This document shows, in pieces, positions 3,473 to 16,925 of a stretch of DNA of 64,000 bases. A model generated the notes under the pieces. It was not told the origin of the DNA. It saw nothing but the letters and a program-made list of their open reading frames with translations, and ran no database searches. The DNA is from Escherichia phage vB_EcoM_CRJP21: sequence record OQ708376.1; one strand, given 5' to 3'. Made by a program: the position numbers and the translations under genes. Numbering within the stretch: the stretch's first letter is position 1; each line of letters starts with the position of its first letter.

Positions 3473-3500
3473 TTGACAAATGTTTTTAAAAGCGTATAAT
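3473..3500 (+). promoter_or_regulatory. sigma70-like promoter (TTGACA, 16 bp, TATAAT)
   Basis: consensus boxes, proximal to gene 3533. Confidence 0.6.
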
Positions 3501-9110: not shown

Positions 9111-9202
9111 AAAAAGTGGTTGACTTCGGTCAGCCATTTTGTTATTATATATTCATTGAGAGATAGCTCACTAGCCCACAGGGTGCAGGAGTGTATCTAT
9201 TG
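9111..9202 (+). repeat. intergenic cassette copy A: hairpin-embedded promoter (R3) + R2 28-mer
   Basis: TTGACT-17-TATTAT inside inverted repeat, then AGCCCACAGGGTGCAGGAGTGTATCTAT. Confidence 0.55.
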
Positions 9203-9662: not shown

Positions 9663-9758
9663 TATAAAAAAATAGTTTGACAATAGATTATAGTACTGTA
9701 TAATAGTTTACATCAAGGGGAGAAAAACTTCTCCCCACTAACAGAGAGAGAAAACAAA

Positions 9759-10779: not shown

Positions 10780-10874
10780 ACTATTGACAATATCATCAAG
10801 TACTGGCATAATACTTACATCAAGACGAGAACGTCACTAACCCATAGGGTGCACAAATGTAACTGTATAATATT

Positions 10875-10905
10875 GATCAAAAAATGATCTGATCAATACT
10901 TGATC
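10875..10905. promoter_or_regulatory. cluster of four GATC sites (three TGATCA palindromes) in 31 bp
   Basis: direct read; intergenic. Confidence 0.5.
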
Positions 10906-11110
10906 AATTTGCGTAAAGTAGTATAATTCTATGCAGTTGGTTAGACGAAAGGTTATGATTAGTAGTGCAAGTGTATAAAAATTTTCATGGTGTATCGTTT
11001 CGCACATATGGGGATGAATATGTGGTATCATGTGGATTGGAAAAAGTAAGAACAAGTAATATTATTGTCGCATTACAGTACTATAGTATTTTTATAATGA
11101 GGTTAAAATA

Positions 11111-11368
11111 ATGGCTGTAGGATTCGCGAAAGATGGGGCCGAACAAGACGAGATTAACGCAGTGATTCAGGCCGCCGTTAACCACGCTAGAAAGCAAATT
11201 AACGCACAAATAGAATCACTGATACATTGCCTCGACTGCGGCGATATAATCCCTGAGAATCGACGCCAGGCCGTTAAGGGATGTAAGTACTGCATAACTT
11301 GCCAGGAGGATCATGATAGTACTTTTAAACGTCCCCCGCGTAATTGTTGGCATAGATCTATGAGATAA
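11111..11368 (+). CDS. TraR/DksA-family C4 zinc-finger protein
   Basis: CLDCGDIIPENRRQAVKGCKYCITC matches CxxCG-x3-IP-x2-RR-...-C-x2-C signature. Confidence 0.65.
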   Translation: MAVGFAKDGAEQDEINAVIQAAVNHARKQINAQIESLIHCLDCGDIIPENRRQAVKGCKYCITCQEDHDSTFKRPPRNCWHRSMR

Positions 11369-11431
11369 AAAGTATTGACAGTACTGAAAGATAGTGTATA
11401 ATGTTTTATATCTTAACTGAGGATAGAAATC

Positions 11432-12082: not shown

Positions 12083-12406
12083 ATGTACATTCATACTACT
12101 ATCACAAAGGAAGTCCGTTGCCAGTTCGAAAGTATTCCGGGCGTATGTTTCATCACTGGTACGTTTTCCCCTGGTGATCGTGATAATCCAGTACTGTTAC
12201 AATTACGCCATCCATCATGGGATAAAGCATTTGATCTACCGTTGAATGAATTCGCAACTACTGCTGAAAAGTACATTAAAAATATTCGCGAGAATGATCG
12301 ACTATTCATTAATGCTTTTAGTGATTCCGCGTTAAGCGAGATCCACGGTGTATTGGTTGCAATCATGGAATCAATGGAGAAAACTAAATTCAAACAAGGT
12401 GAATAA
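12083..12406 (+). CDS. hypothetical protein (107 aa)
   Basis: track ORF; RBS AGAGGA. Confidence 0.6.
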   Translation: MYIHTTITKEVRCQFESIPGVCFITGTFSPGDRDNPVLLQLRHPSWDKAFDLPLNEFATTAEKYIKNIRENDRLFINAFSDSALSEIHGVLVAIMESMEKTKFKQGE

Positions 12407-12412
12407 AAACTA

Positions 12413-12440
12413 TTGACAAGATAATCTAGTACTGTATAAT
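12413..12440 (+). promoter_or_regulatory. sigma70-like promoter with extended -10 (TTGACA, 16 bp, TGTATAAT)
   Basis: consensus boxes. Confidence 0.65.
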
Positions 12441-12489
12441 AAGTTACATGAAGGGGAGAAATGATTCTCCCCACTGAGAGGAAAGAAAA

Positions 12490-12702
12490 ATGCAAGGTCA
12501 ACTAATCGTTCGTAAATGGTCTGATACTAACGCTAAACCGTGGGATGTACAATACATCGGACCGGATGGGGTATCACGTTATCAGCCTGGCGTAACGCAT
12601 AGTACTGAGCAATATGCCGCCGCTCACCGCGAACGCCTGTTAGAATCCATGAAACAGGGATACGGTGAAAAATTCATTCAAGATCATTGGCTGAAAGATT
12701 AA
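12490..12702 (+). CDS. hypothetical protein (70 aa)
   Basis: track ORF; promoter + hairpin. Confidence 0.6.
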   Translation: MQGQLIVRKWSDTNAKPWDVQYIGPDGVSRYQPGVTHSTEQYAAAHRERLLESMKQGYGEKFIQDHWLKD

Positions 12703-13137: not shown

Positions 13138-13234
13138 AAAAAGGGATTGACTCCGGTCAGTCCCTTTGCTATTATATACGCATAGAAACAAATCAGCCCA
13201 CAGGGTGCATAAATGTATCTATTGTTTGCTGGTG
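13138..13234 (+). repeat. intergenic cassette copy B (R3 hairpin-promoter + R2) followed by Chi octamer 13227-13234
   Basis: near-identical to copies at 9111, 16409, 18667. Confidence 0.55.
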
Positions 13235-13443: not shown

Positions 13444-13719
13444 ATGCGGATTCTACTGACAGCTAACGAAATCGAACAAGTACTGACTACTAACCTGGAA
13501 GACTGGAAACGTGAAGCAGATATCCAGGCGGTTCAACGGCTTAACGATGAGTTAACGCCGGATGACTTAAGCAAGATTGTAGATCCTCAATTCTACGAAG
13601 ATATCCACGACACCGCGTTAAGCGTCGAGGATGTACTAGATAAGCACTACATTGATATTGATTTGCAGGTTTACGGTCGTAAAAACTTTATCACTATTCA
13701 CGACATTTACAATAATTAA
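13444..13719 (+). CDS. hypothetical protein (91 aa)
   Basis: track ORF; promoter TTGACA-16-TATAAT at 13382-13409. Confidence 0.65.
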   Translation: MRILLTANEIEQVLTTNLEDWKREADIQAVQRLNDELTPDDLSKIVDPQFYEDIHDTALSVEDVLDKHYIDIDLQVYGRKNFITIHDIYNN

Positions 13720-13805
13720 GTATTGACAAAGTATCTTAGTACTGTATAATAGTTTACATCGAGAGGGGGAATGGTTCCCCTCCTAACAAAGAGAGAGAAA
13801 TAAAA

Positions 13806-13988
13806 ATGGCTAAATGCACTATCTGTAAGAAAGAAATCGTATTAGTTCCAAGTGCCCGTGAACGTGCCGCTCGGTTCGGTGGCAAAGCGTCAGACTATAC
13901 AAAAATGTTTACTACCCATGCAGCTTGCCAGGTAGCAAAACGTTCACAAGAAAGCGTAGAATTAATGCGTAAACTTTCCAAAAAATAA
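13806..13988 (+). CDS. hypothetical protein (60 aa, Cys-containing)
   Basis: track ORF; promoter + GGGGGAATGGTTCCCCTCC hairpin. Confidence 0.6.
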   Translation: MAKCTICKKEIVLVPSARERAARFGGKASDYTKMFTTHAACQVAKRSQESVELMRKLSKK

Positions 13989-14077
13989 GTATTGACAAAG
14001 TATCTTAGTACTGTATAATAGTTTACATCAAGCGAGGGGAATGGTTCCCCTCCTAACTAAAAGAGAGAGAAATAAAA

Positions 14078-16408: not shown

Positions 16409-16498
16409 AAAAGGGATTGACTCCGGTCAGTCCCTTTGCTATTATATATTCATTGAGAGATAACTCACTGACCCATAGGGTGCGGAAGTGTATCTATT
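16409..16498 (+). repeat. intergenic cassette copy C (R3 + R2)
   Basis: near-identical to other copies. Confidence 0.55.
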
Positions 16499-16619: not shown

Positions 16620-16841
16620 ATGACTACAATGACTTGCATTTACGCTTCCAATCTTCTGAATGATGCGGCCTTTAATGTTGATTCAGAATATCAATGTTAT
16701 CGGGATGAAAATAAAAAAGTTTTTGTAGTTGATAATAATGGTTTCCATATTGAATTACAATCCGGTTTCACTGGTGTTGATGGTAAATCAGTGTGGGGCG
16801 TACAGGATGATAAAGGCACATATCATTTTAAACGTAATTAA
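16620..16841 (+). CDS. hypothetical protein (73 aa)
   Basis: internal ATG after promoter and hairpin. Confidence 0.6.
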   Translation: MTTMTCIYASNLLNDAAFNVDSEYQCYRDENKKVFVVDNNGFHIELQSGFTGVDGKSVWGVQDDKGTYHFKRN

Positions 16842-16925
16842 GTATTGACAAAGTATATCAGTACTGTATAATAGTTTACATCAAGGGGAGAATAGTTCTC
16901 CCCGATACTAAAAGGAAACAAAATT

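Follow-up and report, generated by a model that had tools for sequence, protein, structure and literature searches.

Within a long run of small plus-strand ORFs, almost all of them annotated as hypothetical, the 64,000-nucleotide stretch of Escherichia phage vB_EcoM_CRJP21 DNA analysed here (record OQ708376.1; 'the window' below) carries a gene for an 85-amino-acid zinc-finger protein, MAVGFAKDGAEQDEINAVIQAAVNHARKQINAQIESLIHCLDCGDIIPENRRQAVKGCKYCITCQEDHDSTFKRPPRNCWHRSMR, whose ORF lies exactly where a first-pass annotation, made from the letters alone, had put it. In the sequence TAATG (11109-11113) its ATG and the stop codon TAA of a small ORF just upstream overlap, and the gene, the parts of its product and the flanking signals are collected in the table. 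The window comes from an Asteriusvirus jumbo coliphage of the PBECO4/121Q group, the 3 kb around the gene sharing 98-99% identity with Asteriusvirus jumbo phage genomes of 310-386 kb (BAU.Micro_ELP-22, SP27, PBECO4, UB and others).

Table. Features at and around the zinc-finger gene; positions are those of the window, and residue numbers are those of the 85-aa product.
Feature	Position	Strand	Description and basis
Candidate promoter of the transcription unit	10784..10812	+	TTGACA-N17-CATAAT with TG, 11/12; variant of the repeated cassette, family D7
Weaker candidate promoter	10900..10927	+	TTGATC-N16-TATAAT, 10/12; promoter scan
Shine-Dalgarno-like GAGG	11099..11102	+	8 nt before the ATG of the zinc-finger gene; read from the sequence
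Zinc-finger CDS	11111..11368	+	ATG start, 85 aa and a stop codon; C4 zinc-finger protein of the TraR/DksA family, YbiI-like
N-terminal tip motif, residues 1-14, MAVGFAKDGAEQDE	11111..11152	+	Near-invariant in the phage clade (MAVGFAKDGAEQxE); replaces TraR DxxDxA
Predicted long N-terminal helix, residues 8-32	11132..11206	+	AlphaFold2, block pLDDT 75-80; counterpart of the TraR secondary-channel helix
C4 zinc knuckle, residues 40-64	11228..11302	+	CxxC-N17-CxxC, I47 P48 E49 x R51 R52, G57; invariant columns and Pfam match
Predicted short C-terminal helix, residues 62-71	11294..11323	+	Invariant Q65 and D69; AlphaFold2 and conservation
Basic tail, residues 72-85, FKRPPRNCWHRSMR	11324..11365	+	Specific to the phage clade; low model confidence
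Perfect promoter TTGACA-N16-TATAAT	11375..11402	+	7 nt past the zinc-finger stop; serves the GNAT gene, separate from the zinc-finger gene
GNAT acetyltransferase, 118 aa	11432..11788	+	Immediately downstream; GNAT Pfam matches

The zinc-finger ORF is a real gene. Comparison with its copy in Salmonella phage SE_PL gives a dN/dS of 0.12-0.14 at a dS of about 1.7-2.0, and against the copy in the T4-like phage JS10 dS is saturated. Coding just upstream is ambiguous, with a plus-strand ORF (GTG at 10965 or ATG at 11022, end at 11111) competing over 10837-11111 with a 72-aa minus-strand ORF (10837-11055); the ELP-22 annotation includes both, no family match was obtained for either, and positions 10839-10872 are occupied by a repeated element of family D11, AACCCATAGGGTGCA.... 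A two-gene module was considered and set aside, the upstream ORF (10965-11111) having no similarity to MobD.3, which in JS10 stands in the same TAATG overlap. The acetyltransferase was likewise rejected as a conserved partner: it adjoins the zinc-finger gene only in Asteriusvirus, the neighbours in SE_PL and JS10 being others. PADLOC defence models gave no match for either the zinc-finger protein or the acetyltransferase. Further along, a 107-aa plus-strand ORF at 12083-12406 matches Pfam DUF7247 with a score above cut-off (E 1.8e-7).

With regard to expression, a promoter scan found 11 perfect TTGACA-N16/17-TATAAT promoters on the plus strand between 3.4 and 18.4 kb. A-rich sequence flanks them upstream, their discriminators are AT-rich, with 1-3 G/C among the first 8 nt, and many promoters here are part of the repeated cassette described below. 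The scan lists no terminator-like hairpin that would separate the zinc-finger gene from the two candidate promoters preceding it. Going by its sequence, the layout resembles that of an early region transcribed by host RNA polymerase (RNAP) in unmodified form, and to place the gene among the early genes, as had been done at first pass, is plausible given the run of small plus-strand ORFs with perfect TTGACA-N16-TATAAT promoters. A phage sigma factor has been reported for Asteriusvirus phages and no phage RNA polymerase has been described for them (PMC11895373, PMC13070987), which implies dependence on that of the host.

The repeats of this part of the genome deserve mention in their own right. 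A promoter cassette recurs on the plus strand between positions 3473 and 18396 (e.g. at 9667-9754, 12403-12490, 13713-13800, 13982-14069 and 16835-16922) and consists, in order, of an A-rich flank, TTGACA-N16-TATAAT with a spacer ending in AGTACTG, the AT-rich discriminator AGTTTACATCAAG, a leader hairpin, a purine-rich stretch and an ATG. The hairpin of its 5′ leader is GGGGAGAA-loop-TTCTCCCC, and AGTACTGTATAAT, when up to one mismatch is allowed, is present 20 times where 0.32 occurrences would be expected. A different hairpin, with a 12-bp stem (AAAGGGATTGACTCCGGTCAGTCCCTTT), is present in three plus-strand copies (9113-9140, 13140-13167 and 16410-16437) that form part of repeats of 61-138 nt, families D8 and D9; a -35-like TTGACT lies within its stem and is followed by a -10-like hexamer, TATTAT.

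Assignment of the product to the TraR/DksA family, originally made from its cysteine signature, is borne out by Pfam, PHROG, NCBIfam, PDB sequence matches and profile-profile alignment; profile searches had been proposed as the check, and homology being found, the family call survives. The protein genuinely belongs to Pfam zf-dskA_traR (PF01258), which it matches over residues 39-68 at 42.7 bits, the gathering score being 24.9 (E 5.4e-11). It also matches PHROG_54, 'DksA-like zinc-finger protein' (E 1.8e-18), and when a profile of 58 homologues was aligned by hhalign to a TraR-clade profile, built from F TraR and six phage genes (from lambda-like, 933W, P2-like SopEPhi, Vibrio, Mannheimia and Pseudomonas phages), the probability was 99.5% over residues 17-77 (E 3.6e-22). 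In the 85-aa protein the motif reads C40-x2-C43-G-x2-I47-P48-x2-R51-R52 ... C61-x2-C64, the two CxxC pairs being 17 residues apart as they are in TraR. The CxxC-G, IP-x2-RR and C-x2-C elements recognized at first pass are thus present, the one trivial slip being a spacing given as G-x3-IP where the protein has G-x2-IP.

The family call can be refined. Among NCBIfam models the best score is to the YbiI equivalog (NF008243/PRK11019), with residues 1-72 running the full length against profile positions 1-71, at 81.7 bits where the cut-off is 96. The scores are also below cut-off for the TraR sub-family TIGR02419 (51.3 against 59.7), the TraR equivalog PRK13715 (30.4 against 108) and the DksA model NF033459 (14.2 bits against 105). 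Among solved structures E. coli YbiI comes nearest in sequence (2KGO; E 2.9e-12, residues 1-74), followed by TraR in its RNAP complexes 6N57 and 5W1S (E 1.7e-5), which align only from residue 18. These comparisons place the protein on the YbiI branch and not on that of F-plasmid TraR and lambda Orf73. Since it falls short of the equivalog cut-offs for both TraR and YbiI, and lacks the DxxDxA motif considered below, 'YbiI-like TraR/DksA-family protein' is an apter name than 'a TraR'. The first-pass idea that it could bind RNAP and reprogram transcription has to be qualified to the same extent, because the YbiI branch is functionally uncharacterised, DxxDxA is absent at the aligned positions and the TraR cut-offs are missed.

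As to distribution, tblastn with the 85-aa protein retrieves relatives in 967 phage records. Homologue searches set apart a tight clade of 84-87-aa proteins, with 45 clusters at 90% identity and, below an E-value of 1e-30, a single one at 50%, encoded by Asteriusvirus and by T4-like phages (Citrobacter phage Moon, Yersinia phages MHG19 and fHe-Yen9-01, and Escherichia phages vB_EcoM_RZ and JS10). Next out are bacterial YbiI proteins of 88 aa, with 42-52% identity across the full alignment. The family assignment is correct and already public: a protein of phage SHEFM2K that is 100% identical is labelled 'DksA-like zinc-finger protein' in GenBank, as is the orthologue in ELP-22. A literature search combining 'DksA-like' with 'jumbo phage' found nothing. 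Within the window the gene is alone of its kind, a six-frame translation searched with both profiles yielding no second TraR/DksA-type ORF.

Two aberrant relatives are of interest from a different perspective. The last 28 residues, VIYCVGCQSMHDEIFKREPRNCWHRSMR, of a 63-aa ORF in the T4-like Escherichia phage EP02SG (L005 490-681) are those of the C-terminal half of the YbiI-like phage protein, and the half before them is unrelated and without the first CxxC. This ORF would seem to be a chimera or a leftover of recombination, and is the probable source of a PHROG_25948 match to residues 59-85. The orthologue in Escherichia phage CMSTMSU (L004 1480-1780) is frameshifted across all three frames, and its interpretation as a pseudogene was rejected, the record being flagged UNVERIFIED_ORG and the shifts therefore probably sequencing errors.

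Conservation was assessed column by column in 58 sequences, 45 from the phage clade and 13 YbiI-like ones from bacteria. None of the 58 departs from the four cysteines of the predicted C4 zinc knuckle CxxC-N17-CxxC (C40, C43, C61 and C64) or from R51 and R52; I47 and G57 are also invariant, and P48 and E49 nearly so. What the phage clade and bacterial YbiI have in common is the N-terminal MAxG[FW]AKDGAxQ, the four cysteines, I47 P48 E49, R51 R52, G57, Q65 and D69. Two regions distinguish the phage clade. At the N-terminal tip E11 is found in 44, and E14 in all, of its 45 sequences at positions where bacterial YbiI has V and Q, and D8, E11 and E14, at i, i+3 and i+6, would place a D-x2-E-x2-E pattern on one face of a helix. 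At the other end the tail reads F-K-R-x-P-R-N-C-W-H-R-S-M-R, with R77-M84 invariant or nearly so in 45/45, and [DE]PRNCWHRSM[R/K] stands in these 45 sequences where the YbiI tail is YNRRGSKDSQLR.

Comparison of the copies in this window, SE_PL and JS10 reveals synonymous codon differences within both invariant termini, so that the constraint acts on the protein; a nucleotide-level element beneath the invariant tail was considered and, with synonymous codons varying between phages, rejected. Invariance of both termini at the protein level despite saturated dS is as would be expected of contacts with a conserved host machine, to judge from the sequence comparisons.

An AlphaFold2 model from the 58-sequence alignment, of moderate confidence overall (mean pLDDT 73.5, pTM 0.41) and weak in residues 1-7 and in the tail, 72-85 (pLDDT 51-65 for the tail), has a helix at 8-32, a zinc-knuckle domain with a short helix at 49-54, and a helix at 62-71. 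In a Foldseek search of the PDB with this model YbiI comes top (E 9e-5). RNAP-bound TraR (6N57_M) is matched with TM 0.58/0.66 and an rmsd of 3.3 Å over 67 columns, 5W1S_M being similar, and the DksA-RNAP complexes 7KHI and 5VSW are weaker structural matches. The helix at 62-71 is unlike TraR 58-73 in sequence and is followed by the invariant, Pro-containing tail of low pLDDT. The predicted fold supports TraR-like docking and does not prove it.

With E. coli YbiI (2KGO) the phage protein has in common the N-terminal MAxG[FW]AKDGAxQ, the C4 knuckle, the IPE-x-RR loop, Q65, D69 and near equality of length (85 aa against 88). The two are nevertheless only 37% identical, have E/E and V/Q, respectively, at positions 11 and 14, and differ in their tails (PRNCWHRSMR in the phage protein, NRRGSKDSQLR in YbiI); YbiI is in addition chromosomal, with its function unproven, whereas the phage protein is encoded by virulent phages. 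The literature searched holds no published RNAP-binding data for any YbiI-branch protein. Over-expression of YbiI has been reported, as data not shown, to rescue dksA auxotrophy (PMC2613031). With DksA there is the zf-dskA_traR domain in common, but DksA has about 151 aa and a two-helix coiled coil with DxxDxA at its tip, where the phage protein has 85 aa and a single N-terminal helix, and there is no basis for supposing that the latter depends on ppGpp.

TraR and its phage homologues (lambda Orf73, P2 Orf82, VP882 Orf61 and VHML Orf8) are regulators that act in the RNAP secondary channel. Likeness to this group comprises the homology over residues 17-77, the three-part architecture and predicted fold, CxxC-N17-CxxC and the RR pair, and, with lambda Orf73, being phage-encoded and probably among early genes. 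The arginines are pertinent in that TraR R48/R49, the equivalents of R51/R52, contact the β′ rim helices and β′Si3 (PMC9239242). Five out of five phage TraR homologues tested bound RNAP at the DksA site and inhibited rrnB P1, with rRNA and ribosomal-protein promoters as targets, and lambda Orf73 raises phage yield about four-fold while leaving lambda lytic promoters unaffected (PMC9239242).

The differences from this group lie at the two ends. F TraR, lambda Orf73 and other TraR-clade sequences start M-x-D-x-x-D-x-A, whereas the phage protein has an N-terminal extension and a DxxExxE pattern in place of DxxDxA. MAFFT sets its V3, A6 and D8 opposite TraR D3, D6 and A8, so that DxxDxA is missing at these positions, and the HMMER and hhalign alignments with TraR begin only after its first 16-17 residues. 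The C-terminal region, which contains prolines, also differs from the TraR helix that contacts βSi1. DxxDxA reaches the region of the RNAP active site and is needed for inhibition by TraR and Orf73 though not for their binding to RNAP (PMC9239242); its absence here counts against a TraR-like action, as do the missed cut-offs and the different C-terminal region. On the same side, some intermediate-length zinc-finger proteins of the TraR/DksA family that lack DxxDxA show no DksA-like action (PMC9239242).

Taken by analogy, the protein is closest in its working to TraR and lambda Orf73, and early in infection it probably binds host RNAP in the secondary channel, with some regulatory consequence. 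Both the binding and the direction of the effect are argued by extension from family members that have been characterised, among them TraR and lambda Orf73 (PMC9239242). The course of events envisaged would begin with host sigma-70 RNA polymerase making this small YbiI-like protein early. Its zinc-bound globular domain would then dock, via the invariant IPE-x-RR loop, on the rim of the secondary channel (β′ rim helices and Si3), with the 25-residue N-terminal helix and its tip, MAVGFAKDGAEQxE, extending into the channel toward the active site and the C-terminal helix and basic tail touching the adjacent RNAP surface. Host transcription would shift as a result, most likely off kinetically fragile promoters such as those for rRNA and ribosomal proteins. 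On the cooperation with the promoter and hairpin system suggested at first pass no result bears, the nearest observation being the consensus hexamers and AT-rich discriminators of the phage promoters. Open complexes are stable at promoters that combine these two features, and DksA and TraR do not inhibit this class. From such promoter kinetics the phage's own consensus promoters, with their AT-rich discriminators, would be expected to be spared, and polymerase would thereby be freed for a phage without one of its own.

A doubtful alternative is that the protein occupies the secondary channel without TraR-type inhibition and there evicts DksA (with ppGpp) and Gre, so lifting a host brake on phage early transcription. 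Such uncoupling of occupancy from inhibition has a precedent in the tip aspartates of DksA, which are essential for its function and dispensable for binding (PMC9239242), and in the phage protein it is DxxDxA that is unaligned and the rim-binding RR loop that is invariant. That there is a brake to lift is suggested by T4, where host DksA lowers early transcription and burst size (PMC6024815), and the same protein clade is present in many T4-like phages. However, T4 early promoters were not inhibited by DksA in vitro (PMC6024815), so the brake may be indirect. The near-invariance of the N-terminal 12 residues, together with the added E11 and E14, moreover argues for a tip with a specific role and not for an inert plug.

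It is unlikely that the protein has no role at RNAP at all and is instead a YbiI-type zinc-ribbon protein directed at another target, whether nucleic acid or a different protein of the host, or engaged in a function connected with metals or stress. The operon context of chromosomal ybiI once prompted a suggestion of that sort; the invariant tail PRNCWHRSMR is without counterpart in TraR or DksA, the sub-family cut-offs are missed, and there are the family members that lack both DxxDxA and DksA-like activity. Yet the residues with which TraR grips the β′ rim helices and Si3 are invariant here, the overall predicted fold matches that of RNAP-bound TraR, and YbiI at high level is reported to complement dksA, while neither a PADLOC match nor a conserved neighbour hints at a different pathway. 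As for the ORF being a chance motif or non-coding, that reading has next to no probability left and is excluded by E-values of 5e-11 to 1e-47, relatives in 967 phage records, purifying selection (dN/dS 0.12-0.14) and the presence of a ribosome binding site.

Binding in the secondary channel with a regulatory consequence being the preferred reading, a bolder and quite tentative proposal is that the YbiI-like clade of virulent phages, Asteriusvirus and T4-like together, constitutes a distinct class of secondary-channel ligand, either a decoy that evicts DksA and Gre or a factor that uses its novel tip and tail to affect RNAP, or some other target, differently from TraR and DksA. In one sense the find is ordinary: phage proteins of the TraR/DksA family are widespread, and for TraR and lambda Orf73 the mechanism is known. 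A phage YbiI-type branch with strictly conserved tip and tail is nonetheless a possible route to the function of E. coli YbiI, and it could also reveal how phages that rely fully on host RNAP cope with DksA.
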